Source of the DNA: Schmidtea polychroa | Lineage: Eukaryota | DNA length: 64,000 bases | NCBI GenBank assembly: GCA_044892525.1 | Contig: CM097885.1 | Coordinates: 10,170,001-10,234,000, forward strand | Reading direction: 5' to 3' | In this document: positions 19,918 through 49,194 of the stretch, piece after piece | How the letters are laid out: each line of letters begins with the position of its first letter | Position numbering within the stretch: the stretch's first letter is position 1 | Position numbers and translations under genes: made by a program | The notes under the pieces: generated by a model | Databases searched by the model: none | Told to the model about the DNA's origin: nothing | What the model saw: the letters and a program-made list of their open reading frames with translations, nothing else

Positions 19918-20201
19918 TTACTTACATTTTATCTTCTTTGCGAAATATTCAATAGTTCCAGCAGCATAAGCAACAAAATCAGCAACTGAATCCTCATTAA
20001 AATTTCCTGGAAAAGACAATTAAGAATAAACAATGAATTATTATTATTTAACTTTTTCGTCCATATTCTTTTGCAGGTATCGAAGTAACAAAATGTTCTT
20101 CAATTATGACACAATCGCTATCTAGAAAATATATATATATATTTTAAAATGAATTAAAAAAAAATGAAAATACCATTTTCGTAATCGATGTCTGTGATCA
20201 T
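19918..20201 (-). CDS. Putative three-exon 61-aa ORFan
   Basis: ATG 20201; phase-1 introns 20122-20173 and 20007-20052 keep frame: MITDIDYENDSDCVIIEEH...GRKRNFNEDSVADFVAYAAGTIEYFAKKIKCK; ATTGG and TATAAA upstream. Confidence 0.5.
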
Positions 20202-20537
20202 TATCTGTAAAGTTATTTCGTAATAATGAAAATGTTTATAATGAAAAGCATACTTTATTCTCCAGCCAATTAAAATTAAGATAGAAAATATATTACGTTG
20301 TGGTATTTTAAAATTATTTTGTGAAAAGTGAAATAAATATGTGCTTAAATTAACTATGATCATAATTACATATTTTTATTTAAAATAAATAAATAAAATA
20401 TATTTTTTTAAATGTCTGATAATGACCATTTTATTTTACCATTTTTGATTTTGCCCTTATTTTGATTCGATTCAATTATGTATTATATGGTAGACTTTCG
20501 AATGATATAAAACTTGTGTGTGAGTAAAACCGTCCCT

Positions 20538-22243: not shown

Positions 22244-24020
<1,777 letters not shown>

Positions 24021-24253
24021 GCGTTTGTAACAGATAATATATCCTCCATTTTCACACCAGATATTTCTGCTAATTTTTCCAATAAAAAGTTTATTATAAA
24101 TTCTAAATATTAAATAATTTAATAATTAACTAATCATATTAACCTTTTTCTGTAGTCATTATTAGTATTTTAAAACTATAGTATATATTTGTTTATCGAA
24201 AATAAGCGAAAACAAATATAACTAAATACATTTATTAAATACAACAACATTTA

Positions 24254-24673
24254 TTAAAATAACTGTGAAAGTCTAGCAGACATAATTTTCCAAATTGGTG
24301 AATACACATCATTATTATCAACTTTATATCCTTGGATTGCAATTGTTATATACCAATTTTCGTTTTCTTTGAAGCTGATTTCATCAAAGGAATCATAAAA
24401 TCTTGCATATCGGTTGTTGAAAAATGCATGTTGATTACAAGATAGATTCGTATTCTACCGTTTAAAAATATCATCAATAGTTTTAACATCTATCATTGAA
24501 AGCGTGCCGGATAAAAATTGAAATTAGGTAGGAATTAGCTTGATCGGTGACACCAATTTCATATTGATTTCTTCTTTTAAAAAATACATTTTATAGCTGT
24601 GGAACATTTGAACAGGTTGTACAAGTTCTGCAACAACTTTTGGTTTTTCAGTGCTTGAAATTTTCTTTGTCAT
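24254..24673 (-). pseudogene. Homolog of the 139-aa ORF (7422-7841) with a premature TAG
   Basis: Same length (420 nt); CGG TAG where A has CGG TTG. Confidence 0.8.
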
Positions 24674-24793
24674 CGTGAATTATGATTAAAATGAAATGTT
24701 ACAGGGTTTTTATACCTTTGACTCATGCATATCAACCAATCAGATTATAGCATGTCTTTGTTTTAATTGCATTGATATTGTAATGATAAATAA

Positions 24794-25258
24794 TTAATTA
24801 AGTGATAATAAAAAATCTAAAAATTCATTTCCTTCAATTATTGATTTAATTTCAGATATGATATTATCAACTATACATTTGTAATCAATATTTTTTATTC
24901 CAAGAATTACTATCTTACCGCTAGCGAATATATTAACACACATAGGGTTATATTTTATATATCTCAAAGCTGGAAATAATTCTGGTTCGTAAAAACATGG
25001 TATTAATTTATCCAATTTATTTAAATTGCAAGAAAAACCTATATCGGAAGTTACGGTTATCGATTGTATTTCTAAATCATAAACATTATATTCACTAGCT
25101 TTGATTATTTCCTTACACCCCATAATTCTACATTTACCAGTTTTGAAATATATTATTGGATATTTTTTACTTCTATTGATGAGTTGTTGTGGTTTCCCCA
25201 TTGGAAATACCATTTTTGATACATCAGCTTTTGCCCTGTAATTTATATTTGAAAGCAT
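24794..25258 (-). CDS. TATA-binding-protein-like protein, 154 aa, intact
   Basis: Two TBP repeats: SNINYRA...IIYFKTGKCRIMGCK and EIQSITVTSDIGF...YEPELFPALRY...VNIFASGKIVILGIK. Confidence 0.9.
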   Translation of the reverse strand: MLSNINYRAKADVSKMVFPMGKPQQLINRSKKYPIIYFKTGKCRIMGCKEIIKASEYNVYDLEIQSITVTSDIGFSCNLNKLDKLIPCFYEPELFPALRYIKYNPMCVNIFASGKIVILGIKNIDYKCIVDNIISEIKSIIEGNEFLDFLLSLN

Positions 25259-25364
25259 TTTAATAAAATAATTATAAAAACTCAGATATATATATAGTTA
25301 TTTTAAAACGGAGTTCATTTAAATTATCAATATAAACAATAATTATTTAGTTTAAATTTAAAAA

Positions 25365-26495
25365 ATGGAATTACGAAATGATGCAGTATACCAAATCGTT
25401 GGTCCGAGTGGTAGCGGGAAAACATTATTTGTTTGTAAATTACTAAAATCTAATTTGTTCAAAACAAAATTCAACAATATTTATTGGCATAGAGGCGCCG
25501 ATGAAGAACATGGGTTGACGCAATCAAGTTTCTGTCAGTTGAAAAACATGAAAATAGTAAAGGGTTTTGATAAAAACTGGTCAAGTGGTTTGAAGAGAGA
25601 TGATGTCATCATTATCGATGATTTGTATCAAGAAGCCAATAAAGAAAAGGATTTTAATAATTTATTCACAAAAATCAGCAGACATGTTGGTGTAACAGTT
25701 ATTTTCATAACACAAAATCTATTTCATCAAGGTGGAGCACATCGAACACGTAATTTAAATGTACAATATTTAGTTATTTTCAAGAATCCTAGAGATGCAA
25801 CTGTCATTGATTTTCTTGGACGACAAGCATACCCTAATAACCGTAATTTTCTTATCAGTGCATTTCAAGATGCTACTAAAATACCGCATGGATATATATT
25901 TCTTGATTTCACACAACAATGTCCTGATGATTTTCGGGTAAAAACAGATATTTTCAACCCAAAAGGTGCCATGGTTTATAAACAAAATTCAAAACAAAGT
26001 TCAAAACATATAAATCATGTTTTCAAAAACAAAAAACCAAAAGTTCCACAAACAACTAGTTATACTCCATCCAAAGAACTTATTACAGAAAATTTTGCTG
26101 CAATGAATCTTATTTCGAAAAATCCTAAACCTAAATCTAAAAGTAAAACCACTAAGACAGTAAAAGTTGTTAACAATCATCGGAGTTTCCCGTTTTTCAA
26201 TACATTGTTAAAGGCACCAAATATGAAAAGAAACAGTATTTTGCAATCATTTCCAAATTATGTTGTCGATGATTTACTCGATATTATACTTAAAGTAGTC
26301 AAAGGCAAGATTAAAATCAGTAAATCTAAAAAGCAATTATTGAGTAAACATAGGAAACCTTTGCTATCATTAGTAAATAATAAAAATCGTCAACAAATGA
26401 GAAAAATTATATATAAACAACAAGGGGGATTTATCGGTGCATTGATACCTTTAGCAATATCATTATTAGGTGGAATAATAGGAAGTCGATCATAA
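25365..26495 (+). CDS. Packaging ATPase fused in frame to the basic pX-like core protein
   Basis: GPSGSGKT, IIIDDL, SRH; C-terminus KQQGGFIGALIPLAISLLGG. Confidence 0.88.
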   Translation: MELRNDAVYQIVGPSGSGKTLFVCKLLKSNLFKTKFNNIYWHRGADEEHGLTQSSFCQLKNMKIVKGFDKNWSSGLKRDDVIIIDDLYQEANKEKDFNNLFTKISRHVGVTVIFITQNLFHQGGAHRTRNLNVQYLVIFKNPRDATVIDFLGRQAYPNNRNFLISAFQDATKIPHGYIFLDFTQQCPDDFRVKTDIFNPKGAMVYKQNSKQSSKHINHVFKNKKPKVPQTTSYTPSKELITENFAAMNLISKNPKPKSKSKTTKTVKVVNNHRSFPFFNTLLKAPNMKRNSILQSFPNYVVDDLLDIILKVVKGKIKISKSKKQLLSKHRKPLLSLVNNKNRQQMRKIIYKQQGGFIGALIPLAISLLGGIIGSRS

Positions 26496-26498
26496 ACA

Positions 26499-26681
26499 AT
26501 GGGTGCTAATCCTTCATTACCAGACATTAAATTTAATATCAAATCTTCTTGCTGTAATGGAGAAGATTTGGACGAACCCGGAAGACGAAGCCGGTTTTGG
26601 TGGAGTGGCAAAATTAAGGAAAAGAGTTCCGAATTCGAAAAAGGAAACCCAGAAGTGGTTATCAGATCAGCTTGCGTATAG
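26499..26681 (+). CDS. Small putative myristoylated protein overlapping the integrase
   Basis: MGANPSLPDIKFNIKSSCC; homolog of 10385-10612. Confidence 0.6.
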   Translation: MGANPSLPDIKFNIKSSCCNGEDLDEPGRRSRFWWSGKIKEKSSEFEKGNPEVVIRSACV

Positions 26682-26959
26682 TTTGAACAAACCAATGCAG
26701 AAACGATTTCCAACAAGAGCCTATAAAACATTTGGTATTGACGATTTATGGCAAATGGATTTGATGGAGATGATACCCTATTCGAAAATTAACAATGGGT
26801 ATAAATATATTTTAACATGTATTGATGTATACAGCAGGTTTGCACGAGGAATACCCGTCAAGGCAAAATCTGCAGAAGAAATGTGCAAAGCTGTTAATCA
26901 TTTATTTAAAGATGGACATCCTAATAACTTGCAAACTGATTTAGGTATTAATAATATTA

Positions 26960-27020
<61 letters not shown>

Positions 27021-27650
27021 TTAGGTAAAGAATTCTACAACAGTAAAGTCAAGCAAATCCTCAATAAATTGAAAATAAACCATTACTCGGTACATTCTCA
27101 ATACAAAGTTGCTCATGTTGAAAGATTTAACAGAACATTGAGAGATAGATTAAAGAAATTATTCGTGCATCAAGGTAATAAAAAATGGGTATTGGTTTTA
27201 CCAAAAATAATAACAAGTTATAATCATTCATCACATCGAGGACTTAATGGATTGAGACCAGTTGATATTACATCAAAAACATTCTATTCTAAAAAACCTG
27301 TAAAAATTACAAAACCGAAATATAAAGTAGGTGGCCATGTTAGAATTAGTAAAATTAGTGCATCACCATTTATTAAAAATTTTGATACAAATTGGAGTGA
27401 TGAAGTCTTTGTAATTTCAAAAATAAATACTAGTCAGAATCCTGTAATGTATGTCATCAGTGATTATGATAACAATATTGTACAAGGAAAGTTTTATGAG
27501 CAAGAATTACAAGTTATTCCTCCCCCAAAAGTATTTAGAATTCAGAAGATATTGAAAACTAAAAAGGTTGGCAAGGATAAACAATACTATGTCAAATGGC
27601 ATGGTTATCAAAACCCATCATGGATATCAGAAAAGGATCTAGTAAAGTGA
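26557..27650 (+). CDS. rve integrase with C-terminal chromodomain, apparently intact; intron 26945-27024
   Basis: DDE residues in WQMDL, QTDLG|KEF, VERFNRT; chromodomain YYVKWHGY...SWI; the 80-nt GT-AG intron must be removed to restore frame. Confidence 0.93.
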
Positions 27651-28667
27651 ATTTTTATACTATTTTACCAAGCAATAGTTGCCCGCCTATTAATTCATCC
27701 GGACAATCAAGCCAGTAAATTCATGGTCAATCTCCAGAATCCGATTTCTTTAAATGGTGACTTGGAAGTTGCAATGCAAGATTTTACATTCGTGTACAAT
27801 ACATTCTCATTTTATAGTCAATGTAAGATTGATTTCAAAAGGAATGCTATGAAAACATGTAGTGGTATCTTTATTATCAGTAATTATGATAAAACATATC
27901 ATATTCCGAATCAAATATTAGATCCGCATTGCTCTATGTTTTACAAGGATGGATTAAATATCAGTTGTGATTTTAAACCATTTACAATAACATTCGAATA
28001 TATTGAAGATGCCAGACGAATGGGCTGCAATAAGTTGAAAAATGAAGTTATGGAAACAGAATATTTATTACGCTTTGATCTATTTGAAGCAAACAGTGTA
28101 ATGAGATAAGAAATCAAAATATCAGTGTCGTATAATAATGAAGTTGAAGAATCATTCACATTCGCTGACGAATTATATATTGATAAACTTGATGTGTTAC
28201 TTAAATATTTAAAGTACAATTGTTCACACATATTTAAAAGTTTGGACATTGTGAAAGATTTATTGTTTACTTTCAGTTTGAATGATGACATTTGCGAAGT
28301 TACATTTGATAAAAATTTGACAAATACACTTGGATTAGAGAAGCAGCAATATCGGGAAAAATCTGCTGGTATACGTAAACCAAGAATACTTGAACATCAT
28401 CAACAAATGTTCATATATACTAATATTATTGAGCCTATAATAGTTGGTGATTCCAGTGTTCCTCTATTGAAATCGGTATGGATTGGAAAATATGAACATG
28501 ATGAAGTTGTCAATATAAATATAGATAATCCTATGTATTTACCAATTTCAAGCTCATGTATAAACAATATAGAAATAAATATTCGTGACGATAGTGGAAA
28601 ACTTATAAACTTCCCAAAAGACTCAAAAACTCATTTGACACTACATTTTCGTAAAGTAGATGGCTAA
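27647..28667 (+). pseudogene. Minor capsid protein, frameshift and internal stop
   Basis: FYTILPSNS...; 4-nt insertion at ~27672 and TAA at 28107. Confidence 0.88.
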
Positions 28668-29028
28668 TTCCGATATTATTAGTATGTATAGTGATAGCCA
28701 ATCTGGCGGTGAATTACCATATTTTATTGGTAAACAGTACGGATCAGGTTGGTTAAAAGCAATAGGGAGATTTGCACTTCCTATTCTTAAACGTATTGGT
28801 AGTTTTGGTATGAAAACTGCTAAAGATGTGATTATGAATGAACAGAAAATATTACCATCCCTAAAAACAAATGCTTTAGCTGAATTAGGTAAGGTTCTAC
28901 CTGGAGTTGCTGGTATGTTTCAAAAAGATGAGCCCCCAGTCCCAGATCACGCTCCAAAACGTAAAGGACATTAAATATCACGTATAAACAAACGAATGAA
29001 AGGACATGGAACTATATTTGCAAAATGA
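28660..29028 (+). CDS. Small virion protein with amphipathic helix (adenovirus pVI-like); probable premature stop at 28972
   Basis: QSGG...KQYGSGWLKAIGRFALPILKRIG; the frame continues past the stop to ...GTIFAK TGA overlapping the MCP ATG. Confidence 0.65.
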
Positions 29029-30217
29029 TTTGTGGTAAATCCGAATTATGTATATTTGATAGATCATCGCCCCAGGCTGTAATAGAATTTGGGGCATTTG
29101 AAGAAGTTTTTCCTATGAATTCAATTACTGATAGTAGAAATGATATCGAGTTTTATATTAATGGTTCGCAAACTGAATATTTAGATTTGAACGATACTTT
29201 ATTGACTGTTCAGATCAAAGTTGTAGATAAAGATAGAAAGGTTTTGGATGCCAATGCGGATGTATTACCAAAAAATTTCATGTTTCATACTCTGTTTAAA
29301 AATGCAGTGTTGGGATTTAATAATATCAAGATTGAGGGCGGAAATAATACATTCATTCACAAGGCTTTGATAGAAACTATTTTAAATTACAATTCCGATA
29401 CTAAAAGTACCTGTCTTACACCTATGGGTTATGCAGCAGCAGATGATGAAAGAAAAAAGTGGGTTAAAGGTTCAAAAGTATTCACTATGTGCTCATCATT
29501 AAAACTTGATTTTATGGATCAACCAAAATATTTACTACCGGGAGTTAATATACATATTAGATTGAAAAGGTCCGATTCTGCATATGTCAATTAGTTGATG
29601 CAAAATTATTGGTGAGAAGAGTTCGAGTAGACCCGTCAGTATTAGCCGGTCATCAATTGGGTCTTAATTCAAAACATGCAATTTATCCTTTAAAAACAAA
29701 GGAAATTGTACAATTTGCTATTGCTAAAGGTGCTTCATCATTCTATAAAGAACAAATATTTGGTGACAGAAGAATGCCTAATTTTATTCTGGTAACATTT
29801 CAAAGTGAAACGCAATATAATGGATCTTATACTGCTTCCAGCTCAATTTTCAAAAATTTTGGTGTTACTTCATTGACTTTGTCGAAAAATACTGATTATA
29901 GAGAAACATATACTCAAGATTTCGAAAGCGATAATTACTGTGCGACATATATGCAGAGTATTGTTAGAAATCTGGGTTACTTAGATAAAAATTTGAATTG
30001 TGGAATTACTCTAGAAGAATTTAAAAGCAAATATCCATTTTTCACATTTGTTTTAGCTCCCGATTTTGATTTAAATCAGAGTCAACTACCACAAAACGGG
30101 AATTTACGACTGGATATTAAGTTTGCAAAGGCCATTACAGAACCGGTACATGTTATAATATATGGAGTATTTGAAAATGAAGTTCAAATTACTGCAAATA
30201 GAACCGTGCTAGTATAA
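29025..30217 (+). pseudogene. Major capsid protein, frameshifted by a 28-nt deletion at ~29583
   Basis: Full N-terminus (KSELCIF...IEFYINGSQTEYLDLNDT); deletion seen relative to A. Confidence 0.92.
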
Positions 30218-30244
30218 ATGTATACAGAAACACAAAAAGTTGTC

Positions 30245-30629
30245 ATGGAGTAAGTTTTTTGATAATGTTTAATTTTATTAAAGTAGTTCTGTTCAGGTTA
30301 ATCGAATTGGAAAACAAATATTAGGAAATGAATTTGTAGGAGTTTTTCCTCTCGATGAAATTCCTTATTTGAGCAATAATCAAGCCATAATTGTCAATAC
30401 TCATTCGTCTCATCTTGGTGGAGAACATTGGATAGCTATATATGTGAAACCTAGTAATATATTCGTATTCGATCCTATGGGTTTCTATTATCCTGCTTTG
30501 TTGATATCAAAACTTCAAACAATTGGGAAACCAATTGTATATAATAAAACTATATTTCAAAATCCATTGACTCAAACATGTGGTCAACACTGTTTGGCAT
30601 GGTTGTTGTATAAAAAATTTGATGGTTAA
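30245..30629 (+). CDS. Adenain-like cysteine protease, complete; 37-nt intron 30250-30286
   Basis: MD|SVQVNRIG...GEHW...FDPMG...FQNPLTQTCGQHC (His, Asp, Gln and Cys present). Confidence 0.9.
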
Positions 30630-30808
30630 TAAATGTATACTGTATGATTTTTATTTGTTGACTATTTTAATTATTTGTTAAATATTATTATTTTATGTTT
30701 AATCATGAAAATGATGAAAATCATGTAATTGACCTAGAAATTAAGTTTTATGAATATTTAAGTAAATAATAATAATGAAACTTCTAAAATAATAATTAGA
30801 AATTTGCA

Positions 30809-32585
30809 ATTAAATATAGACTGGGTAGCAGAGAGTGAAGATTCGGGATTTGATGAAACAGATGAAGAAAACGCTCAAGATGATGAGGAAAGCATTCAAG
30901 AAATTGATGAACCTATGGAGGAATTTACGGATACTGAACCGTGTGTATATAGGGATTGTATAGATCATGTTGTTGAAAATGTTATCAACTGTGGAGATGA
31001 TGAATGTGAATGTGTTAATAAATTTTAGTGTATATTTAAAGTACAATATTTAAAATTTCTTTGTTAAAGTTTTATCTTGAATATTTTTACCAGTAACTTT
31101 GTAAACAGTACCCTGTGACTTGTTGAGTGTGACCAGTACCCATGTGACTTGTTGAGTGTGAGAGTACCCTTGCTAGCAATACCCTTAGGGGGACAGAATA
31201 TCTTGTCGGATAGACTAGGAGTATATAGATTAATAATAATAATAATAATAATAGTAATAATAATAATAATAATAAAACTTAGAAAATAAAAACTTAGAAA
31301 ATAATAATAATTTTTTAAAATAATAATATGACCTTGAAAAAATAAATGACCTTGAAAATAAAAAATGAACTTGAAAAAATAAATGACCTTGAAAAAATAA
31401 ATGACCTTGAAAAAAAAATAAATATTTTGAACAATTATATGACCTTGAAAATGATTTTTGGTAAAATGTTAATAACTTTGTCAATATTAATGATGATGAT
31501 ACCTTCTATCGTTCAATCGAAAGGTCTTGGATCGAGCTTTAAAATGAGCTATCGTTGAATAATTTTTGTTGGCGGAAACTCTGTAAATTTAAATTTTAAA
31601 ATATGACCTTGAAAAAATAAATGACCTTGAAAAAATGAATGACCTTGAAAAAATAAATGACCTTGAAAAAAATAAATGACCTTGAAAAAATAATATTTTG
31701 AAAAATAATAATAAAATGATCAAATGACCTTGAAAATGGTCTCGGGAAAACTTTAATAACTTTGTCCATATTAATGATGATGATACCTTCTATGGCTCAT
31801 TCGATAGGGCTTGCACTAAGCTTCAAAATAAGCTATCGAGTAATAAATTTGGATAATGAAAACGATAACTTTTGGGCAAACGAAAACCATGAGCCCTCCA
31901 GAACACTAATAATATTTTGAATAATTACATGACCTTGAAAATGATTTTTGGTAAAATGTTAATAACTTTGTCAATATTAATTATGATGATACCTTCTATC
32001 GCTCAATCGAAAGGTCTTGGATCGAGCTTTAAAATGAGCTATCGTTTAATAAATTCGGATAATTGGAACGATAACATTTGGGCAAACGAAAACCATGAGC
32101 CCGCCAGAACACTTAATAATATTTTTGAAAAATAATAATAATATTTTAAAAAATAATAATATGACCTTAATGATTCATTCTAATGAGTCATATGACCTTG
32201 GGAATGACCTTGGATGAGTCACGCGACCTTGAAATGACCTTGAAACGACCTGGATGAGTCATGGTCTTTGTTTAAATGGCCTTGATGAGTCATATGTCTT
32301 TCTTTAAAATTTGACCTTGAAAAATAATATTTTGAAAAAATAATAATATCTTTACCAATAATAATGATAATAAAGATGTCTATACCTCATTTGAAAGGTC
32401 TTGTAGTGGCTTCAAAATAAGTCATCGAGCAATAAATTCCATTGGCGGGAACTCTGTAAATTTAAATTTGGCCTTGAAAAAAAAATGACCTTGACCTTTT
32501 ATTTTTAAAAGAAAAATTTTCCCGGGGGAGGGGGGTATATGTGTCGTGGAGGGCTCATGTTCTGGAGGGCTCACTACCATCTACT
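30809..32585 (-). repeat. Right TIR of B
   Basis: Inverted copy of 22244-24020, including the acidic ORF fragment 30804-31028. Confidence 0.9.
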
Positions 32586-34171: not shown

Positions 34172-35895
34172 TTTACTGGAAGCTATTGTTAGAATACCTT
34201 CACCATTTGAACCTATTTCAACATTTTCCTGTTTCCTTAGTTTTTGTACAAGTTGTAAAAATTAAAAGTTATAAAATTTACAAGAAATAAAAAAATTACA
34301 AGATATAAAATTTATGATTTGTAAAATTCTTATTTTTGAAGTAGTAGAATAAAGGCTAAACAAATTTCATTCCCAACAGAGTGACATCCGAGTAATTGAG
34401 CGACCGACAGGGAGTTCGTTTATGCAGGATGGAAGGATGTTGAAGGGCTGGGTATTATCAATATACATAAAGAGAGTTAAGGCCTGCTTTTAGTAGTTTC
34501 CTGTGTGTAAGCCAGATGCAAATTTGTCACCACAAAAATAAAAATGCCATAATTTTTAAGTTGATGCATATACTGGTATTAAGATTAAAAGATCAAAATA
34601 TGTTAGAGAATTTTAGCTTCAAGAATATCTGAACAACTGAACAACATTATTATCAATTATTATTTATAACTTTTTAAAGTTTGATAAAATTTTTGAATTG
34701 GGAAAAAAATTTTTGGGACTTTTTAAAATTTGGGGAAATTTTGAGTTGGGAAATTTATTTTGGGAATTTTCTGAGTCGGGAATATCTTGTAAAAATCTTT
34801 TATATTTACTATACCTGTGATTTTTTATGTAGTCATGTTATCAAAAGTAGTAGATGATATATAAGATATATATAAGATATACAAGACATATTTTTCTAAA
34901 TATTTTTATTGATTTTTTCTAAGTGACCTACATGATTTTCAAAAAAATTTCCAAATATTTTTTATATAAAAAATTTATTTCTATAATAGAGTGACCTTCA
35001 TATTTAAGTAATTTAATTAAGTACTTTAATTTAAGTACCTACATATTTAAAAAAGCATCCTAAGTATTTTATTAAAAATTTTGTTCATTGTCCTATCATT
35101 TGTTGAAGAACATGAATTTAACAGTAGTGAATAGTAAGGACTCCAACTCACTTTCAAGGTCATGGAATATCAAGATCAAATATAGACCAATCGAATCATT
35201 TATTTTTTAAATTAACATTTTATTTAATTACTTCTTTTTAATTTTATTAATTAATTATTTTATGATGTTATATTTTAATTACTTACTTTAGTTAATTTTT
35301 AATTTATTACATTTAATTAATTTATTAGTTTATTAATATTTTATTTTAATTACTTACGCTTTTTAATTATTATTATTATTATTATTATTTTTAATTTTAT
35401 TTAATTACTTCTATTTTTTTTTTCTCTTTAATTTTATTAGTTAATTATTTTATGATGTTATACTTTAATTACTTATTTTAGTTAATTTTTAATTTATTAC
35501 ATTTAATTAATTAATTTGTTTATTAATACTTTATTTTAATTGCCAACGTTATTTAATTATTATTTATTTATTTTTTAATTTTACATTATATTCTAACAAG
35601 AGCGTAAATTATAACAATAATATTTCAATTTGAATAAAATTTTAATTAGTAATTATTCAATTTGAATAAAATTTTAATTGGTAATTATCATAAAATAAAG
35701 CTGTGTTAATTTAAATAAAATGGGCATTAATTTTTCAAAACAAAGCAAAGTTTTTCATGATAAATAATAATTCTTACTTAAAACTAATTATCTAAATTAA
35801 TTGGACAAATGAATTATTAAATGATAAAACATATTTTAATTAACGAAGTCAAATAATTCACAATATATATTTTATTATTCACATAAATTTAATTG

Positions 35896-38788
35896 TTAAA
35901 GTTCTTGTTTCGATTTGCATTCATTTGTAGACGGAGCAGTTGCGATATGCATTTGACGAATCTTATAGTGACCGTAGGCATAGCTTTCATTAGAATTGAA
36001 CCAATACCTTTTTTCATCCAAACATTGGAGAGCTCGTTTTTCAGTAATGAAAGTATACAACTGATGATTAACACTTCCTATTCTCTTTTGTTGGATGCTC
36101 ACTGTTCCACCATCAGTATACACTTTTTTATAGGCTTCATGGGTGATATTAGAATTTGTAAGACTTATTCCTTTGGCTTTTAGAGTGTTTTTATCTCCTT
36201 GGAGTGAGTAGCACTTGGGTCGAAGAAACACCCATTCTTTATATTGATTTCCTTTATTCTCATCCTTGAATTTCCCGATTACCGAACAAATTTTATCTGA
36301 GAACAATGGATCAGTCACCGGATAATTTGAAGTATCTAGGAGCCCATCGGCAATCATTTTTGGATACAGTTGTAAGCGTAAATCAACATTTTTACACTCT
36401 AAAAAGAAGGAATCTGTGTCACCGGCTACGATATTAATTTGACAATTGAATTCTTCTCTATAACTCTGTAGTTCTTTATATTGAAACTGGTACATGCGAA
36501 GTTTAGATAAATCAAGTACGGTTTGTCCAATATACATTGGTCTATCTAAACACACCATTTCCTTATCAAGTATAACAGCAATGAGATCATCCGCAATCTT
36601 GATGCTACGACGAAACATAGGATTACTACAATAAGTTATCAATCTTTTGCTTTTGCTGCATAATCTCAAATTTATACGTTTCTTAAGGTTTTCCACGGTT
36701 TTACCATATAAACTGTTGTTCTTTAACTTATAATAATCTCGCTGAAATGAATCTGTACTAGCTGCTCTCATTTGAGTATTGTAATCAATATAGCGTTTGA
36801 AAATAGCTACTTGCTTGAATTCTACAGCACGATTAACTTTTGTGACTTTTGCGCCGTAACTCAACCACTCTGTCAAAACTCTACCATTAACTACATAGTT
36901 TTTCTTAGGCTCATGAGTTAACAACAGCTTTTCAACTTTACTACCAGGTGGATAACAAAGCTCAGGAGCTATAGGTAAATCATCTAGCTTATCTTGTATA
37001 CTATCAGGAATGACGATGTCAACCTCTAGAACATATCCACGATCTCCATCAAACTCATCCCCATTTGCACATCTTTCAACAATACCATTCATTTCAGTAT
37101 GATCATTTATCCATCTAAATTCACCAATAGGAAGTTTTTGCGACAGCGCCCATCCATATAAATTATTAACATCTAGGTATGACATTTGTGTTGATTCATC
37201 AGCTTCAACATGATGTTTGTTGATAAATGTCATTCCACCACGAATACCAGCTTCAAATAAACGGTAAAGCTCTGGATCTTGAATAAGTTCTACCGGTTCA
37301 GGTAACTGTTTAATAGCTGATGCCCAACTTAATCCGGGTATGGAAACAAACGATAAAGCCTCAAGTCCATCTTCGTCAAATGTTTTTTCTCTGAAAGCTT
37401 CAAAAACATCGGCCAACACAAAAACATCCAACTTGAGATATACTAGCATGTAATCTAGCAGTGTCTCACAGTTATATTGTCGCCAGATTTGATTTGCATG
37501 TATATAATCTTCTTGACTAACTCCCTCCCAAATCGATGGTAATTCTGTTATTGACTGTAAAACATCCATTGACGTAGCAATATCATAAGGAAATATGCCT
37601 TTACCAGTTATTAGATGCGAATTGAAAATCTTTGAAGTAAGTGGAAGACGTGGCAAGTTTTTTGATAAATTTGCCAAGCTGCTATTTAAAAATTGTAAAG
37701 AATCAATGAATCTAATTCTTCTGCCTTTCGATGTCGCTGTAAGTGTGAGAAACTTTTCTGTTGATTGAGGAATAACAATTAAATTCCAATCTGGGAATTT
37801 TCCAATTGCATATTTTAATATATGATGAATGTCATATCCACGAAGATTATGAAATACAACAGGTAAAGACGGATTGATTCTTCTAGCCAAATTACAATCT
37901 TGACACGCTGCTCCGAGATATTGACCAGTAAAATGATCATGATCTCGAACGGGTATATTGATAATCTTTTTACAAAGGTAGCAATGAGTTTGAGTCGTGA
38001 ATTCTTCCTGCTCTTCCCAAGTGAGTTCCATCATTTCCTTTGATCCATTAATTTTATACCACGGATAAACTATGTCTGTAGCTATATCATCCAATGCTTG
38101 TATGAACTGAATGATACAGTTTTTCCCAACAAATGTTTCATTTCGGATCGGACAACCTTGATGGAGAAGCACAAATTCAGATGCAATCGGCTCATGTTTT
38201 TGGAAGTGTTTGTCATCTAGAGGTAATATCGATTCAAAGTCCGCGTAGACAACAAACTGCTGTTTTATAGTTTTACTCCAATCTTTAAATTCGATATATT
38301 TATTCTCTGGCATTGAGTATAGAGTCGTACGCTCCACATTCTTCCTACAAAGACCTATATGTCTTTCAAAAGCAGGACGTTTTTGAAACCCATGAAGACA
38401 CGTATGACACCAATGTGATTGGATTCTGACTCCTTCTACTCTATCTCTGTAATTCAGCAGTCGATCGAGATTAGTTACAGCCAAAAAATGATAATTTAAT
38501 TCTAAATTTAGTTAATATTTTTAATGATTAAAGGAAATATTACCTTCTTCAATCAATAGGAGATATATCTGAGATCCCGTCGAAGTACTTCTATATACCA
38601 AGTCAATGAACGGATTCTTGAAAATATCATTAGTTTTTTGTTTAATTGGATCTTTATTATATTTGAGAACATTGATCGCTAGATTTGGATTAATTGCTTC
38701 AAATTGGCAAATGTTAACCAACTTCATCGGAAACCATTCAAATTTCCATTTTAAGTCTTAAAAACAAAATTCAATGATTTATGACATT

Positions 38789-38851
<63 letters not shown>

Positions 38852-39923
38852 CCACTTAAGTTATATTTTGTTGTTCTTTCTCTATTCCGACGTATATCAT
38901 CATAACGTAACACAGCTAGTATGCTATATAAAAAACAGAATTGATCATTGTTTTGAACATTAACTAAAGCCTGACAGTTTTTCAGGTAATTTGGCGTTTT
39001 AATGTAACTTGAACCTAAGTAATCTCTTGATTTATATATATATAATAATGTAAATAATCTTACCAGATACATGTATTATGTCTGATAATTTAGTTAAAAT
39101 CATAGTAACTTCTAATATTTTATGAATTCTCCACCCACTACTTTGTTGAGTGTATTTCTCCAACTTTTCTTTTAATTTTTCAATTCCATCATTAATAAAT
39201 GAAGATGACATTGTAATTGCTTTATTCGACAAACACCATTTTTTAATTTCACCATCCTCTTTGATAAACTCTGCACAAAGTCCAAATTGGATTTTTACTG
39301 TCCCCATTCGTTGAATATGATCTTCTATTTCTTTGATGAGACAATCTGGAACAACAATGTCAGGAGAATTAATTGCAGATACATCGCTTGTCAATTCAAC
39401 ACGAGAACCGTTTAAGTCAGACTCCCGACGTGGACACAATTGTATGTTAGAGTCTCCATTTCCGTAAAATATTGACTTTCGTTTTGTGGTGCCAGAGTTT
39501 TGTCTAACTATATTTATAATTAATATTAAACAACTTAAATAACATAACTTGTAACATATTCTTTAATCTCATTAGGATCGTATGATGTATTCATTTTCGA
39601 TTGTACTATAAAAAATTAATAATTGTTAATAGTAGAAAGAGTATTACTTTTAGTGATCATCCTGCTCTTCGTTTCTTCGAATCTTCTAAGATGGTGTCCG
39701 TGTTGTCGTACAAACATTAACCACCTACCTGGTGTTATAATGAGACATTCCGGACATATGTAACCCGATAAGGTAGAGTCATTTATCTTGAAATATGATG
39801 ATGTAACTGATTTACAGTTCTCCACATCTTCATGACTTTCGGCAATACAAAATTTATATAAACTGCATCCGTTCACTAAAAAATAATCATTAATATTAGA
39901 TAGAGAATAAAAATTTATTCACT
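35896..39923 (-). CDS. Protein-primed PolB, left-arm copy, seven exons
   Basis: Inverted copy of 43797-47836; identical 862-aa last-exon ORF. Confidence 0.92.
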
Positions 39924-41090
39924 TATATAAGTTAAATTAAAAGTTTAAATGACAAACATTTGAAAAGTTACTGCTTATATATTACACATGATTAAATTCT
40001 GACCAATCAAAATCAAGGAAGGGGTAGGAAAAATAAATATATTCTGACCAATCAAAATCAAGGAAGGGGTAGGAAAAATAAATGCATTACATTGCAGTAT
40101 TTTAAAACTTAAATTTTAAAACACATTTTGACGCTAAAGTTGACTTATTTAACATTTTCATAATAATTTAATAAAAATAATGTGTTGAACTCACAAAGTA
40201 ATATCATTTTTTTTTCATCAAATTGCAAAACAGTAATAACGTTTTCATAAAATTGTAACAAAGTAATAACATATTTCAGATAAATTTTCAACAGTTGTAA
40301 AATATTTATCAAATTGTAACTAAAATAATAAAAATATTGCAACAAAGTAATAAAATAATGATGTTAATTGGGACAAATCAATACATTATTTCGAAGACGG
40401 ACAACAAATTAAAAAAGAATATTGTAATAAATTGTGAAGTCTTTCAGTAAATTACAACAAAGTAATAACATATTTCGGAAATATTTCACCAGATGTAAAA
40501 TATTTAAGCAAATTGTTATAAGATTATAAAAATATTGCAACAAAGTAATAAAATAATACAACATTTTAAACTCTAGATCAATCCATTTTATAGAAAATTA
40601 AATTTTATCTCTATAATATATGAATAAATATACAAGGAAATTACGTTAACGTATAATAAAACATGTGTGTATTACACACAAAACAAGATACATAATTTCT
40701 AATCAATCCATTTTATAGAAAATTAAATTTTATCTATATATTATATGAATAAAATCCTAAGAAAATTACGTTAACCGCGCGAAAAATACAAATTTATCGT
40801 AAAAACATGTGTGTATTACACACAACATACGAGACATAATTTTTAATCAAGCTATTTTATAGAAAATTAAATTTTATCTATATATTAAATGAATAAAAAT
40901 CCAAGAAAATTACGTTAACCGCGCGAAAAAATACAAATTTATTGTAAAAACATGTGTGCATTACACACAAAGCACCAAACTGAAATTGTAATTGCGCCGT
41001 GTTGTAGAGAATTAAATTCTGCCTATACATGGTTACACTTAAATCTCGATCAGACCTGTGAAAAGAGACATAAAAGATAAAAAACAGTAG

Positions 41091-41382
41091 AGTAGTATGA
41101 TGTGGGCCCGCCCGGCCAGGAGCCCGCTCGGCCACATATACACACTCCCCCCGTGTGTAAAATAATGTTAATAATAATATTTATATATCAGTAGATAGAT
41201 CTCGCACTGGGCCTTAAAATGAGCTATAGATCAATAAAATCCGTTGGCGGGAACATTAAGTTTTGAGCAAACGAAAACCAGGAGCCCGCCAGACCACTTA
41301 ATAATATTTTTTGAAAATAATAATGATTTATGAGTCATCGTATGAGTCATCGAATGAGTCATCGTTCTAAAAATACATGATG

Positions 41383-41442
<60 letters not shown>

Positions 41443-41646
41443 TTCTTGGGAGTTGTAATAATAATTCTTTGAAAATATCTTAGTCATTATTAATAATACT
41501 AATAATACCCTAGCGAGTTGTTGATTGTGAGTAGTACCCTTGTGTGCAGTACCCATGTGACTTGTTGAGTGTGAGCAGTACCTTTGTGAGCAATACCCAT
41601 AGGGGGACAGAATATCTTGTCGGATAAACTCGGAGTATATAATAAT

Positions 41647-41694
<48 letters not shown>

Positions 41695-42629
41695 CAACGA
41701 TTTAAACAAATTAAATTAATATGTAATCGATAATTAAAACAAAGATTATTAGTTCTAAAATTATTAGGCATCATTCTAAAAATATGACGTAATCATTCTA
41801 AAAATATGTGGCATCGTTCTAAAAATATGTGGCATCGTTCTAAAAATATGAGTCATCGTTCTAAAAATATTAGGCATCGTTCTAAAAATATGATGTAATC
41901 ATTCTAAAAATATTAGGCATCATTCTAAAAATAATAGACATCGTTCTAAAATTATGATGTAATCGTTCTAAAAATAATAGACATCGTTCTAAAAATATTT
42001 GGCATCATTCTAAAATATTAGAAAACATTCTAAAAATGTGATGAGTCATTGTCTTTGTTCTAAAAATGTGATGAGTCATCGTATGATAAAAATCTATATC
42101 TCATTAGAAAGTTCTTGCACAGAGCTTTAAAATAAGCTATCGATCAATATAATATGTTGGCGGGAACAATAATTTTTGGGATGAAAAAAAGTAGGTCCCC
42201 GCTGGATCACTTAATAATATTTTGAAAAATAATAATAATTTAACGTTGAAAAGATGGTGGTCATCAATTGTTAATAACATTAAAACTATTAAAGATATAT
42301 ATGATACCTATAGCTCATTCGAAAGGTCTTGGACTGAGCTTTAAGATGAGGTATCGGTTAATAAAATTTGTTGGCGGGAACATTACTTTTGGGAAGAAAA
42401 AAAGTAGGTCCCCGCTGGATCACTTAATTTAAAAAAAATTACGTAATAGTTCTAAAAATATTAGGCATCGTTCTAAAAATATTAGGCATTGATTACGTAA
42501 TAGTTCTAAAAATATTAGGCATCGTTCTAAAAAAAAAATAAAATTTTTTCCCGGGGGGGGGGGGGGGGGGGGGAGGGGGTATATGTGGCCGAGCGGGCTC
42601 CTGGCCGGGCGGGCCCACATCCTACTACT
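41091..42629. mobile_element. Non-coding mini-Maverick (1.54 kb) at the palindrome centre
   Basis: AGTAGT...ACTACT ends, ~60-bp TIR with GTGGGCCC...CACATATAC; internal blocks shared with B TIRs (GGGGACAGAATATCTTGTCGGATA, AAACGAAAACCA..AGCCCGCCAGA). Confidence 0.75.
41750..42085. repeat. Degenerate ~20-bp tandem repeat (CATCGTTCTAAAAATAT core); more copies at 42445-42530
   Basis: Direct reading. Confidence 0.85.
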
Positions 42630-42744
42630 CTACTGTTTTTTATCTTTTATGTCTCTTTTCACAGGTCTGATCGAGATTTAAGTGTAACCATGTATAGGCA
42701 GAATTTAATTCTCTACAACACGGCGCAATTACAATTTCAGTTTG

Positions 42745-43150
42745 GTGCTTTGTGTGTAATGCACACATGTTTTTACAATAAATTTGTATTTTTTCGCGCG
42801 GTTAACGTAATTTTCTTGGATTTTTATTCATTTAATATATAGATAAAATTTAATTTTCTATAAAATAGCTTGATTAAAAATTATGTCTCGTATGTTGTGT
42901 GTAATACACACATGTTTTTACGATAAATTTGTATTTTTCGCGCGGTTAACGTAATTTTCTTAGGATTTTATTCATATAATATATAGATAAAATTTAATTT
43001 TCTATAAAATGGATTGATTAGAAATTATGTATCTTGTTTTGTGTGTAATACACACATGTTTTATTATACGTTAACGTAATTTCCTTGTATATTTATTCAT
43101 ATATTATAGAGATAAAATTTAATTTTCTATAAAATGGATTGATCTAGAGT
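42745..43150. repeat. About three ~120-bp tandem repeats in the arm (mirrored at ~40570-40975)
   Basis: Repeated TGTGTGTAATACACACATGTTTT...GTTAACGTAATTT...AGATAAAATTTAATTTTCTATAAAAT. Confidence 0.85.
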
Positions 43151-43637
43151 TTAAAATGTTGTATTATTTTATTACTTTGTTGCAATATTTTTATAATCTT
43201 ATAACAATTTGCTTAAATATTTTACATCTGGTGAAATATTTCCGAAATATGTTATTACTTTGTTGTAATTTACTGAAAGACTTCACAATTTATTACAATA
43301 TTCTTTTTTAATTTGTTGTCCGTCTTCGAAATAATGTATTGATTTGTCCCAATTAACATCATTATTTTATTACTTTGTTGCAATATTTTTATTATTTTAG
43401 TTACAATTTGATAAATATTTTACAACTGTTGAAAATTTATCTGAAATATGTTATTACTTTGTTACAATTTTATGAAAACGTTATTACTGTTTTGCAATTT
43501 GATGAAAAAAAAATGATATTACTTTGTGAGTTCAACACATTATTTTTATTAAATTATTATGAAAATGTTAAATAAGTCAACTTTAGCGTCAAAATGTGTT
43601 TTAAAATTTAAGTTTTAAAATACTGCAATGTAATGCA

Positions 43638-43748
43638 TTTATTTTTCCTACCCCTTCCTTGATTTTGATTGGTCAGAATATATTTATTTTTCCTACCCCT
43701 TCCTTGATTTTGATTGGTCAGAATTTAATCATGTGTAATATATAAGCA
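43638..43748 (+). promoter_or_regulatory. pPolB promoter: duplicated ~43-bp unit with inverted CCAAT box, then TATA
   Basis: Two copies of CCTACCCCTTCCTTGATTTTGATTGGTCAGAAT followed by TATATAAG. Confidence 0.6.
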
Positions 43749-43796
43749 GTAACTTTTCAAATGTTTGTCATTTAAACTTTTAATTTAACTTATATA

Positions 43797-44868
43797 AGTG
43801 AATAAATTTTTATTCTCTATCTAATATTAATGATTATTTTTTAGTGAACGGATGCAGTTTATATAAATTTTGTATTGCCGAAAGTCATGAAGATGTGGAG
43901 AACTGTAAATCAGTTACATCATCATATTTCAAGATAAATGACTCTACCTTATCGGGTTACATATGTCCGGAATGTCTCATTATAACACCAGGTAGGTGGT
44001 TAATGTTTGTACGACAACACGGACACCATCTTAGAAGATTCGAAGAAACGAAGAGCAGGATGATCACTAAAAGTAATACTCTTTCTACTATTAACAATTA
44101 TTAATTTTTTATAGTACAATCGAAAATGAATACATCATACGATCCTAATGAGATTAAAGAATATGTTACAAGTTATGTTATTTAAGTTGTTTAATATTAA
44201 TTATAAATATAGTTAGACAAAACTCTGGCACCACAAAACGAAAGTCAATATTTTACGGAAATGGAGACTCTAACATACAATTGTGTCCACGTCGGGAGTC
44301 TGACTTAAACGGTTCTCGTGTTGAATTGACAAGCGATGTATCTGCAATTAATTCTCCTGACATTGTTGTTCCAGATTGTCTCATCAAAGAAATAGAAGAT
44401 CATATTCAACGAATGGGGACAGTAAAAATCCAATTTGGACTTTGTGCAGAGTTTATCAAAGAGGATGGTGAAATTAAAAAATGGTGTTTGTCGAATAAAG
44501 CAATTACAATGTCATCTTCATTTATTAATGATGGAATTGAAAAATTAAAAGAAAAGTTGGAGAAATACACTCAACAAAGTAGTGGGTGGAGAATTCATAA
44601 AATATTAGAAGTTACTATGATTTTAACTAAATTATCAGACATAATACATGTATCTGGTAAGATTATTTACATTATTATATATATATAAATCAAGAGATTA
44701 CTTAGGTTCAAGTTACATTAAAACGCCAAATTACCTGAAAAACTGTCAGGCTTTAGTTAATGTTCAAAACAATGATCAATTCTGTTTTTTATATAGCATA
44801 CTAGCTGTGTTACGTTATGATGATATACGTCGGAATAGAGAAAGAACAACAAAATATAACTTAAGTGG

Positions 44869-44943
<75 letters not shown>

Positions 44944-47836
44944 AATGTCATAAATCATTGAATTTTGTTTTTAAGACTTAAAATGGAAATTTGAATGGTT
45001 TCCGATGAAGTTGGTTAACATTTGCCAATTTGAAGCAATTAATCCAAATCTAGCGATCAATGTTCTCAAATATAATAAAGATCCAATTAAACAAAAAACT
45101 AATGATATTTTCAAGAATCCGTTCATTGACTTGGTATATAGAAGTACTTCGACGGGATCTCAGATATATCTCCTATTGATTGAAGAAGGTAATATTTCCT
45201 TTAATCATTAAAAATATTAACTAAATTTAGAATTAAATTATCATTTTTTGGCTGTAACTAATCTCGATCGACTGCTGAATTACAGAGATAGAGTAGAAGG
45301 AGTCAGAATCCAATCACATTGGTGTCATACGTGTCTTCATGGGTTTCAAAAACGTCCTGCTTTTGAAAGACATATAGGTCTTTGTAGGAAGAATGTGGAG
45401 CGTACGACTCTATACTCAATGCCAGAGAATAAATATATCGAATTTAAAGATTGGAGTAAAACTATAAAACAGCAGTTTGTTGTCTACGCGGACTTTGAAT
45501 CGATATTACCTCTAGATGACAAACACTTCCAAAAACATGAGCCGATTGCATCTGAATTTGTGCTTCTCCATCAAGGTTGTCCGATCCGAAATGAAACATT
45601 TGTTGGGAAAAACTGTATCATTCAGTTCATACAAGCATTGGATGATATAGCTACAGACATAGTTTATCCGTGGTATAAAATTAATGGATCAAAGGAAATG
45701 ATGGAACTCACTTGGGAAGAGCAGGAAGAATTCACGACTCAAACTCATTGCTACCTTTGTAAAAAGATTATCAATATACCCGTTCGAGATCATGATCATT
45801 TTACTGGTCAATATCTCGGAGCAGCGTGTCAAGATTGTAATTTGGCTAGAAGAATCAATCCGTCTTTACCTGTTGTATTTCATAATCTTCGTGGATATGA
45901 CATTCATCATATATTAAAATATGCAATTGGAAAATTCCCAGATTGGAATTTAATTGTTATTCCTCAATCAACAGAAAAGTTTCTCACACTTACAGCGACA
46001 TCGAAAGGCAGAAGAATTAGATTCATTGATTCTTTACAATTTTTAAATAGCAGCTTGGCAAATTTATCAAAAAACTTGCCACGTCTTCCACTTACTTCAA
46101 AGATTTTCAATTCGCATCTAATAACTGGTAAAGGCATATTTCCTTATGATATTGCTACGTCAATGGATGTTTTACAGTCAATAACAGAATTACCATCGAT
46201 TTGGGAGGGAGTTAGTCAAGAAGATTATATACATGCAAATCAAATCTGGCGACAATATAACTGTGAGACACTGCTAGATTACATGCTAGTATATCTCAAG
46301 TTGGATGTTTTTGTGTTGGCCGATGTTTTTGAAGCTTTCAGAGAAAAAACATTTGACGAAGATGGACTTGAGGCTTTATCGTTTGTTTCCATACCCGGAT
46401 TAAGTTGGGCATCAGCTATTAAACAGTTACCTGAACCGGTAGAACTTATTCAAGATCCAGAGCTTTACCGTTTATTTGAAGCTGGTATTCGTGGTGGAAT
46501 GACATTTATCAACAAACATCATGTTGAAGCTGATGAATCAACACAAATGTCATACCTAGATGTTAATAATTTATATGGATGGGCGCTGTCGCAAAAACTT
46601 CCTATTGGTGAATTTAGATGGATAAATGATCATACTGAAATGAATGGTATTGTTGAAAGATGTGCAAATGGGGATGAGTTTGATGGAGATCGTGGATATG
46701 TTCTAGAGGTTGACATCGTCATTCCTGATAGTATACAAGATAAGCTAGATGATTTACCTATAGCTCCTGAGCTTTGTTATCCACCTGGTAGTAAAGTTGA
46801 AAAGCTGTTGTTAACTCATGAGCCTAAGAAAAACTATGTAGTTAATGGTAGAGTTTTGACAGAGTGGTTGAGTTACGGCGCAAAAGTCACAAAAGTTAAT
46901 CGTGCTGTAGAATTCAAGCAAGTAGCTATTTTCAAACGCTATATTGATTACAATACTCAAATGAGAGCAGCTAGTACAGATTCATTTCAGCGAGATTATT
47001 ATAAGTTAAAGAACAACAGTTTATATGGTAAAACCGTGGAAAACCTTAAGAAACGTATAAATTTGAGATTATGCAGCAAAAGCAAAAGATTGATAACTTA
47101 TTGTAGTAATCCTATGTTTCGTCGTAGCATCAAGATTGCGGATGATCTCATTGCTGTTATACTTGATAAGGAAATGGTGTGTTTAGATAGACCAATGTAT
47201 ATTGGACAAACCGTACTTGATTTATCTAAACTTCGCATGTACCAGTTTCAATATAAAGAACTACAGAGTTATAGAGAAGAATTCAATTGTCAAATTAATA
47301 TCGTAGCCGGTGACACAGATTCCTTCTTTTTAGAGTGTAAAAATGTTGATTTACGCTTACAACTGTATCCAAAAATGATTGCCGATGGGCTCCTAGATAC
47401 TTCAAATTATCCGGTGACTGATCCATTGTTCTCAGATAAAATTTGTTCGGTAATCGGGAAATTCAAGGATGAGAATAAAGGAAATCAATATAAAGAATGG
47501 GTGTTTCTTCGACCCAAGTGCTACTCACTCCAAGGAGATAAAAACACTCTAAAAGCCAAAGGAATAAGTCTTACAAATTCTAATATCACCCATGAAGCCT
47601 ATAAAAAAGTGTATACTGATGGTGGAACAGTGAGCATCCAACAAAAGAGAATAGGAAGTGTTAATCATCAGTTGTATACTTTCATTACTGAAAAACGAGC
47701 TCTCCAATGTTTGGATGAAAAAAGGTATTGGTTCAATTCTAATGAAAGCTATGCCTACGGTCACTATAAGATTCGTCAAATGCATATCGCAACTGCTCCG
47801 TCTACAAATGAATGCAAATCGAAACAAGAACTTTAA
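43797..47836 (+). CDS. Protein-primed PolB, 1236 aa, seven exons (Cys/His N-terminus, terminal-protein/OTU-like region, exonuclease, polymerase)
   Basis: Exons 43797, 43845-44072, 44115-44171, 44213-44656, 44706-44867, 44976-45188, 45231-47836 sum to 3711 nt in one open frame; VYADFES, DHDHFTG, FHNLRGYD, YLDVNNLYG, KNNSLYGK, AGDTDS, KCY. Confidence 0.92.
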
Positions 47837-49194
47837 CAATTAAATTTATGTGAATAATAAAATATATATTGTGAATTATTTGACTTCGTTAATTAAAATA
47901 TGTTTTATCATTTAATAATTCATTTGTCCAATTAATTTAGATAATTAGTTTTAAGTAAGAATTATTATTTATCATGAAAAACTTTGCTTTGTTTTGAAAA
48001 ATTAATGCCCATTTTATTTAAATTAACACAGCTTTATTTTATGATAATTACCAATTAAAATTTTATTCAAATTGAATAATTACTAATTAAAATTTTATTC
48101 AAATTGAAATATTATTGTTATAATTTACGCTCTTGTTAGAATATAATGTAAAATTAAAAAATAAATAAATAATAATTAAATAACGTTGGCAATTAAAATA
48201 AAGTATTAATAAACAAATTAATTAATTAAATGTAATAAATTAAAAATTAACTAAAATAAGTAATTAAAGTATAACATCATAAAATAATTAACTAATAAAA
48301 TTAAAGAGAAAAAAAAATAGAAGTAATTAAATAAAATTAAAAATAATAATAATAATAATAATAATTAAAAAGCGTAAGTAATTAAAATAAAATATTAATA
48401 AACTAATAAATTAATTAAATGTAATAAATTAAAAATTAACTAAAGTAAGTAATTAAAATATAACATCATAAAATAATTAATTAATAAAATTAAAAAGAAG
48501 TAATTAAATAAAATGTTAATTTAAAAAATAAATGATTCGATTGGTCTATATTTGATCTTGATATTCCATGACCTTGAAAGTGAGTTGGAGTCCTTACTAT
48601 TCACTACTTTTAACACATGAAAGTTGTTATATTATGGCATTTGCTGCTGATGTTATTCACTGTCACGTCATGTGATGAAGTATACGATTTTAATCGTTTC
48701 AATTATTCCGTTTCACAATATTGATGCAAAGAATCACACTTGACCATAAAAATAAAAAATCATCTGACATTGGGTGCTGCACAGTAAGCTCCGCCAAAAG
48801 AGGTGAGGTTTCACATAGGTGGACTGCATTGTGCGCTAGCACAGCACTTGTCTCTGAAGCGAAGTGAACTCGGGTGGTCTCATTTAATGTTCATGAGTTT
48901 CCATTCTTTATAACTGAATCTTTTAAAAAATAAAGAAGTATTGAGAATCCATTTGACAAATTAACAGAAGTTAAATGCTAATATTGAAAAATTATTCGCG
49001 GCCACATAAAATAATTACGCAGCCCATATGTTGGCCATCCCTGTGGTAGGCCGTACGCGGAATAAAAAATGCTTTAAAAAATTAATGAATTTAATTGGGA
49101 GCTACTGTCCCATTTTTCTTACTCCAGAAATATTGACAAAAGAAAATTTTCTATAAACCTATAAACTATTAAAAAGAAAATAATTTATTATTTA

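Follow-up and report, generated by a model that had tools for sequence, protein, structure and literature searches.

We analyzed a 64,000-nucleotide stretch of the Schmidtea polychroa genome (GCA_044892525.1, contig CM097885.1, here C1, positions 10,170,001 to 10,234,000 of the forward strand; hereafter the window, with positions counted from its first letter), in which a ~13.5-kb mirror-image insertion at 35123-48608 carries Maverick-type ends and two copies of the gene for a DNA polymerase B of the protein-primed kind (pPolB). The element starts with 5′-AGTAGT and terminates with ACTACT-3′, the (AGT)2..(ACT)2 end motif described for Mavericks (PMC8097293), and is flanked by a direct 6-bp target-site duplication (TSD), TTTAAC, at 35117-35122 and 48609-48614 (both + strand). 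Its left arm (35123..41085, + strand, 5,963 bp) serves as one giant terminal inverted repeat (TIR), mirrored by the right arm (42635..48608, − strand, 5,974 bp), and a non-palindromic core of 1,549 bp (41086..42634) separates the two. At ~6,000 bp, this TIR is outside the 100-1,500 bp range given for Mavericks (PMC10748475). A first-pass annotation made from the letters of the window had proposed two ~6-kb inverted arms integrated as a unit between Maverick termini and a TTTAAC duplication, and both the arm boundaries and the end sequences bear this out.

From the outside inward, each arm holds two subterminal AT-rich repeats of 189 bp (35205..35583, mirror copy 48149-48526), the polymerase gene, two 43-bp repeats with a CCAAT word in each (39993..40083, mirror 43637-43724), and an inner repeat-rich module of ~970 bp (40113..41085, mirror 42635-43607). 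The CCAAT repeats form a candidate promoter module, which is also found in L121, an element described below. The inner module is 88-96% common to the arms of a second family; we refer to the window-type arm and polymerase family as P1 and to the second as P2. The core has inward-facing AGTAG ends and a ~60-bp terminal repeat, is without a TSD, and contains 21-bp and ~210-bp repeats that are 73-91% related to the terminal repeats of Maverick B, a neighboring element in the window.

Self-BLAST aligned 35118-41152 with 48613-42568 at 99.7% identity over 6,047 columns. Outside the core, 0 substitutions were found between the arms in the 5,799 columns compared, and the arms differ only at position 35414, by a single base of a poly-T/A run, and in (TA)n length, by 12 nt; the terminal repeat of the core adds one T/G mismatch at 41098, with further differences from 41142 onward. 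This matches the earlier account of the arm differences ((TA)n length, one poly-A base and a few bases in the core TIR), and the substitution-free arms support its view that their identity is recent and copy-back-like. Besides pPolB, the window element has no open reading frame (ORF) of at least 100 aa, and tblastn with eight Maverick proteins (ATPase, integrase ×2, putative minor and major capsid, protease, TBP) gave 0 matches in 48 element stretches including the window copy; as a positive control, all eight neighboring-Maverick proteins matched the second neighbor, Maverick A. The reported lack of integrase, capsid and ATPase thus holds, and since its own integration and packaging genes are absent, the element is helper-dependent, as had been suggested. 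We infer that it replicates itself and would be packaged by helpers.

The two pPolB genes point outward, the left copy (35896..39867, − strand, long last frame 35896-38511) being the mirror of the right, and the long frame matches DNA_pol_B_2 (PF03175, E 4e-32). The first-pass annotation had placed a complete outward-facing pPolB in each arm. The orientation is correct; the 805-aa ATG frame, by contrast, is the last exon only and lacks the N-terminal third, which is split into five more pieces upstream. This upstream frame is broken by five GT..AG stretches, each in phase 1 and 41-108 nt long, and one contains the (TA)n. In the right copy, probable introns at 44657-44705, 44868-44975 (holding the (TA)n) and 45189-45230 flank two OTU-like exons (region 44657..45230, + strand), the one at 44706-44867 (+ strand) carrying the invariant Cys motif. 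The last exon (45231..47836, + strand) encodes the OTU His, the exonuclease motifs DFES, FHNLRGYD and YLKLDV, and the polymerase motifs DVNNLY, KNNSLYGKT, GDTDS and KCYS. Judged from these patterns, the polymerase is probably spliced, with five introns: the window pieces, with an X at each break, are colinear with a continuous P2 frame (48% over 1,244 columns), the splice dinucleotides at 19 of 20 positions are conserved in 64/64 arms, and none of the seven indels listed from public runs falls in exon pieces, with three of the seven in intron stretches. A contig of run X11, taken by guess to be RNA, carries at 45229 a loose end of 13 letters identical to window 45174-45186, by eye the spliced form of the last intron, and contigs of X16 and X18, also RNA by guess, cover the coding part only.

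In a predicted fold of the P2 N-terminal region (pLDDT 87.7), we found a little-finger/PAD-like domain (Z 7.8, rmsd 2.4, 90 aligned) and an OTU domain (Z 6.8). Window piece 44215-44655 is 39% identical to the P2 little-finger/PAD-like region, an assignment that for the window hinges on weakly supported splicing. A layout with terminal protein (TP) and vOTU N-terminal to the polymerase has been described (PMC11071308), and the modeled regions are candidates for the terminal-protein and OTU parts of such a layout. The polymerase evolves under purifying selection, with ratios of non-synonymous to synonymous substitution rates (dN/dS) of 0.11-0.22 (0.11-0.14 between variants of P2, 0.22 when the window is compared with the L067 arm). 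In 61/64 P1 arms the frame runs without interruption for at least 860 aa and retains every motif, and of the 32 long-frame variants listed from public runs, 23 are synonymous. Codon variants found once among P1 arms are near neutral (12 synonymous, 21 non-synonymous), which is expected after insertion in a young family; the frame is interrupted or shortened in 11/19 P2 arms.

The genome searched spans 781 Mb, is AT-rich and comprises four chromosome-scale contigs. A 29-nt probe from the outer end has 72 matches in it (control 0), which resolve into 32 inverted pairs and 8 singles. The paired copies are 12,454-15,737 bp long (median 13,340), and when all 32 were examined, a perfect 6-bp TSD was found in 31, with 30 different hexamers. 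The first-pass annotation had proposed looking for further copies with different TSDs, and these are such copies. Looser end probes gave 1,036 terminus variants, many end pairs being merely 3-9 kb apart, and a window-type polymerase probe has 843 genome matches; older relatives therefore exist. The palindromes are real, mobile and young. The replicon is thus recent, as had been proposed, yet no one-off: its architecture is established, being found in at least 32 nearly identical copies, in older variants and with a second lineage of polymerase.

That second lineage came to light through the core, whose end has 352 genome matches (~176 cores). Sixteen cores were sampled beyond the 32 copies, and each is flanked by an arm junction on either side. 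The core had been described as a central mini-element, and we considered a free mini-Maverick resembling a miniature inverted-repeat transposable element; we rejected this in our sample, as the AGTAG ends come without a TSD of their own (TSD at 0/16 cores, of ~176) and the core was found free at 0/16. Left flanks of sampled cores hold a full P2 arm in 19 of 20 cases, the other being rearranged. The P2 arm is 6.0-6.8 kb long, has a different pPolB and has only the inner ~970 bp in common with P1. Its end has 883 genome matches, a TSD was present at 8/9 P2 elements checked, and P2 polymerase matches pair outward at all five loci checked within the listed range. P1 and P2 polymerases are 57% identical, P2 clusters with the polymerase of the full-type Maverick A, and a single P1+P2 clade was rejected in a quick tree of 14 of 43 rows (p-AU 8e-5). 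At least two polymerase lineages have therefore entered the layout, either by separate origin or by arm exchange.

Spacers differ among copies, from 237 bp to >3 kb. One 16-kb P2-ended element, taken whole, is again a polymerase palindrome with another, repeat-built center, and at its arm junctions this second center type (L121/L122) lacks a repeat bounded by AGTAG. Mid-element samples of P2-ended elements match one of the two center types in 9/9 cases. We had considered the 15-17-kb P2-ended elements as autonomous helpers, a role we rejected because the whole one is a polymerase palindrome and the nine mid-samples are repeat spacers, not capsid or integrase genes. Among 100 listed polymerase motifs, 16 pairs face outward vs 4 inward. 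Outside this genome, no relatives were found among viral contigs, seven relatives among metagenome contigs (1.1-3.4 kb) are too short to show architecture, and 3,174 protein homologues come without genomic context.

Several further observations concern P2 and its relatives. Arms in L101-L120 are of two lengths, ~6.15 kb and ~6.8 kb; the shorter ones miss ~630 bp near the gene start and often have a break in an A run. P2 palindromes sit within capsid or integrase genes of A/B-type Mavericks in L102 (3356), L103 (3346) and L114 (3344). A 285-bp mini-element with AGTAG ends (L121 7379-7663) lies inside the second center type, adjoining a 1.13-kb direct repeat. Near the contig start (G000:C1:0.3-1.4 Mb), unpaired P2-type polymerase matches are densely clustered together with repeated P1-type ends. 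An outward-facing pair of a third polymerase motif type (G000:C1:9630556-9642478) is possibly another palindrome lineage.

Comparison of arms within and across elements bears on how the palindromes multiply. The median number of substitutions between arms is 0 within an element vs 15 across elements, private variants are present in both arms of 13/32 elements, and at 28 shared-variant columns the variant is present in the two arms alike, E21 and (for two columns) E01 excepted. Because within-element differences are so few and private and subfamily variants appear in both arms, one arm has been copied from the other. Some elements join unlike arms: a P2-core-P1 hybrid (L074/L073) is bounded by one TSD, TTAATT, a hybrid of a 94%-divergent and a standard arm (L067/L066) by one TSD, CATCTA, and a further P2/P1 hybrid is without a TSD. 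A single TSD around a hybrid means either that the hybrid predates insertion or that later conversion replaced an entire arm; panhandle replication with strand exchange would be expected to yield such two-family, single-TSD hybrids.

Multi-copy unit insertions with 6-bp TSDs, arms copied from each other, hybrids between arm families and a polymerase conserved by selection are all observed in these elements. We consider it likely, with a probability of roughly 75%, that they are polymerase-only Maverick derivatives in which the TIR has grown to ~6 kb and includes the whole pPolB gene, around a variable spacer, and which use protein-primed panhandle replication and a borrowed integrase. We hypothesize that the polymerase, through the terminal-protein domain it carries, would prime a free linear form at each AGTAGT end, replication then proceeding by strand displacement. 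Folding of the strand set free could produce a long panhandle and hence identical arms, and the core and inner 1 kb that different elements have in common may allow their strands to pair, resulting in an arm swap. A retroviral-type integrase of other Mavericks would then insert the element in trans. The layout probably goes back to a mini-Maverick with inverted repeats that lay upstream of a pPolB and allowed one end to be copied across the opposite half, an origin that fits because the core resembles Maverick B terminal repeats and has inward AGTAG ends and no TSD.

Several points weigh against this account. The elements are known here from assembled genome sequence alone, and since the second center has no AGTAG-bounded repeat, an origin from a mini-element is not general. 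We found no parent combining a P1 end with capsid genes, the listed capsid motif being present, by eye, in 0/12 P1-type terminus pairs on C1 0-22.9 Mb. Nor did we find one combining a window-type polymerase with capsid genes: 10 unpaired polymerase matches were sampled, 6 near a window-type end, and the 400-bp samples taken upstream gave no match to Maverick A or B, a set too sparse to exclude a parent. Between arms, (TA)n length is unequal in 30/32 elements, and 3/31 TSDs are TATATA/ATATAT, at least two of which sit in TA runs and are weak. Splicing rests on colinearity and one 13-letter loose end from a run guessed to be RNA, no splice joint for any of the five introns is among the listed public-run joints, and X16 contigs pass unspliced through the first two introns. 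Finally, the little-finger Z of 7.8 is at a level the tool rates as common, and the fold is that of P2, not of the window protein.

How the palindromes relate to possible helpers allows other interpretations. Maverick B (22244..32585, + strand, TSD TATACT) has an ATPase, an integrase, putative capsids, a protease and a TBP-like gene between TIRs of ~1.8 kb, is without pPolB and is a candidate partner type; a second independent, also pPolB-less insertion (TSD CATTGA) lies at G000 C1:268.8/269.1 Mb, where it is duplicated. Polymerase-less and autonomous elements both occur, so mutual dependence is possible. The palindromes might give pPolB in trans to polymerase-less capsid/integrase elements of the Maverick B type and get integrase and capsid back, a cooperative two-part system that we advance tentatively; hundreds of polymerase-only palindromes of at least two lineages could then conceivably be the replicase segment for such elements, exchanging arms via the shared core. 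Consistent with this, pPolB is missing from both full-length Maverick B insertions, which do have TIRs and a TSD; the core shows relatedness to Maverick B terminal repeats; the palindrome polymerases are under purifying selection; and for 30/53 capsid-motif sites on C1 0-10.5 Mb, no polymerase motif is listed within 12 kb. However, 18/53 have one 0-6 kb downstream, so that autonomous types exist and could serve both, and these fractions come from coordinate lists of exact motif matches, tandem duplicates included, in which sites may be fragments. The A/B capsid motif has 2,206 genome matches, the Maverick A polymerase probe only 97, and the general polymerase motif 5,172, of which three typed probes account for ~2,200. 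The argument that capsid elements lack polymerases, when based on counts across the genome, was discarded as invalid, since those 5,172 matches exceed the typed families. The ends also speak against a shared system: the outer end of the palindrome (AGTAGTGAATAG..) and that of Maverick B (AGTAGATGGTAG..) have only AGTAG in common, and their terminal sequences are not shared.

A purely parasitic element of the defective-interfering type, replicated by helper polymerases with its own pPolB as a passenger and duplicated only to reach a packageable length, would explain why the 32 copies are near full Maverick size, why 11 of the 19 P2 frames are damaged and why P1 singleton codon variants are near neutral. 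We regard it as unlikely given the dN/dS of 0.11-0.22 between diverged palindrome copies, the splice dinucleotides kept in all 64 arms at 19 of 20 positions and the confinement of the X16 and X18 contigs to the coding part; the many P1-type terminus pairs just 3-9 kb apart also weaken a strict packaging-size rule. Arm-to-arm conversion is possible in long chromosomal palindromes, and homogenization by intrachromosomal gene conversion after insertion, as opposed to extrachromosomal replication, would suit E12, where a 13-variant tract is in both arms. Yet private substitutions build up in one arm (12 in E01, 5 in E11), unlike arms persist in E21 and the P1/P2 hybrids, and the (TA)n lengths remain unequal, making this slightly less probable still. 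That the palindromes are fold-back or mis-assembly artefacts is highly improbable: the arms are substitution-free and none of the listed contigs of other runs bridges 48608, but at 31/32 loci the element stops precisely at AGTAGT, next to a 6-bp direct duplication and between flanks that are unrelated, spacers vary in length, and some elements have unlike arms.

Our preferred reading, a polymerase-only palindrome replicated through a panhandle, can be compared with known systems. The element is like Mavericks/Polintons, specifically the adintovirus Alpha-type with OTU and a PF03175 pPolB, in its (AGT)2..(ACT)2 ends, 6-bp TSD, 13-kb size class and exonuclease-palm polymerase with candidate TP and vOTU regions (PMC8097293, PMC10748475, PMC11071308, PMC8502044). 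Unlike an autonomous Maverick, it has no integrase, capsids, ATPase or protease, carries two polymerase genes and has a ~6-kb inverted repeat instead of one of 100-1,500 bp (PMC10748475), and it does not qualify as one. Its probable introns also contrast with intact vertebrate Mavericks, which are reported as intronless (PMC8097293). Polinton-derived pPolBs are likewise found in pGKL-type cytoplasmic linear plasmids, which arose via loss of the morphogenetic module (PMC11071308), and in the two-segment bidnaviruses (PMC8502044); these differ in being neither nuclear TSD-integrating nor palindromic. Bidnavirus segments have common termini, whereas the palindrome and Maverick B do not. Steinwaerder, Carlson and Lieber reportedly obtained in 1999 a rearranged adenovirus product with one end present twice, around a cassette. 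Internal inverted repeats drive replication-induced rearrangement in the protein-primed, linear adenovirus genomes (PMC2518115), there engineered, gene-free and non-integrating, in contrast to a natural, polymerase-bearing, TSD-inserted palindrome. Integrated invertron plasmids (kalilo, pAL2-1) similarly lie between kilobase inverted repeats, attributed to panhandle intermediates (PMC1864894), but are mitochondrial, with flanks of host DNA and a product that is not itself mobile. In C. elegans, 10 loci with pPolB beside a TIR and no integrase are described as Polinton remnants, and the available part of that source mentions no two-polymerase palindrome or TSD-bounded family (10.1101/2024.01.15.575659). 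Our literature search found no two-polymerase palindromic Maverick family; Repbase, subscription journals and supplements lay outside it.

Protein priming and panhandle replication of Mavericks have so far been deduced mostly by analogy to adenovirus. The 6-kb stem, whose two arms share variants private to their element, provides, together with single-TSD hybrids, a readable genomic record of panhandle replication, and with copies this young the free form becomes a target that can be tested. A standard search for Mavericks asks for both a polymerase and an integrase and so would miss families of this type, and palindromes may collapse in short-read assemblies. Polymerase-only beside polymerase-less elements bear on the origin of segmented genomes and linear plasmids from polintoviruses; if the two-part system were true, here would be a polintovirus system that integrates and is segmented by nature, as well as a living intermediate on the way from Mavericks to linear plasmids without capsids.

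Among the neighbors, Maverick A (5118..21365, + strand, TSD GATATT) is of the full type with its own interrupted pPolB (14565-18398), a TBP-like gene (8750-9136, Pfam E 1e-13) and a weak Bcl-2-like gene (6063-6413). The integrase frames of A (10443-11441) and B (26557-27650) have an (AAT)n interruption in the same place, probably an intron. A 3.8-kb Maverick B derivative (L080) is inserted within a pPolB gene. Inverted capsid/integrase modules lie 9.4 kb apart at G000:C1:259860508-259865910 (+) and 259875272-259880676 (−), as a structural-half palindrome or as two neighbors. Elsewhere in the window are a Tc5/pogo-type transposase fragment (16-549; DDE_1, HTH_Tnp_Tc5), a host-like ORF of 459 aa with weak RING-finger matches (921-2300) and, immediately right of the palindrome, a tandem array of ~72-bp units (49180-49594).

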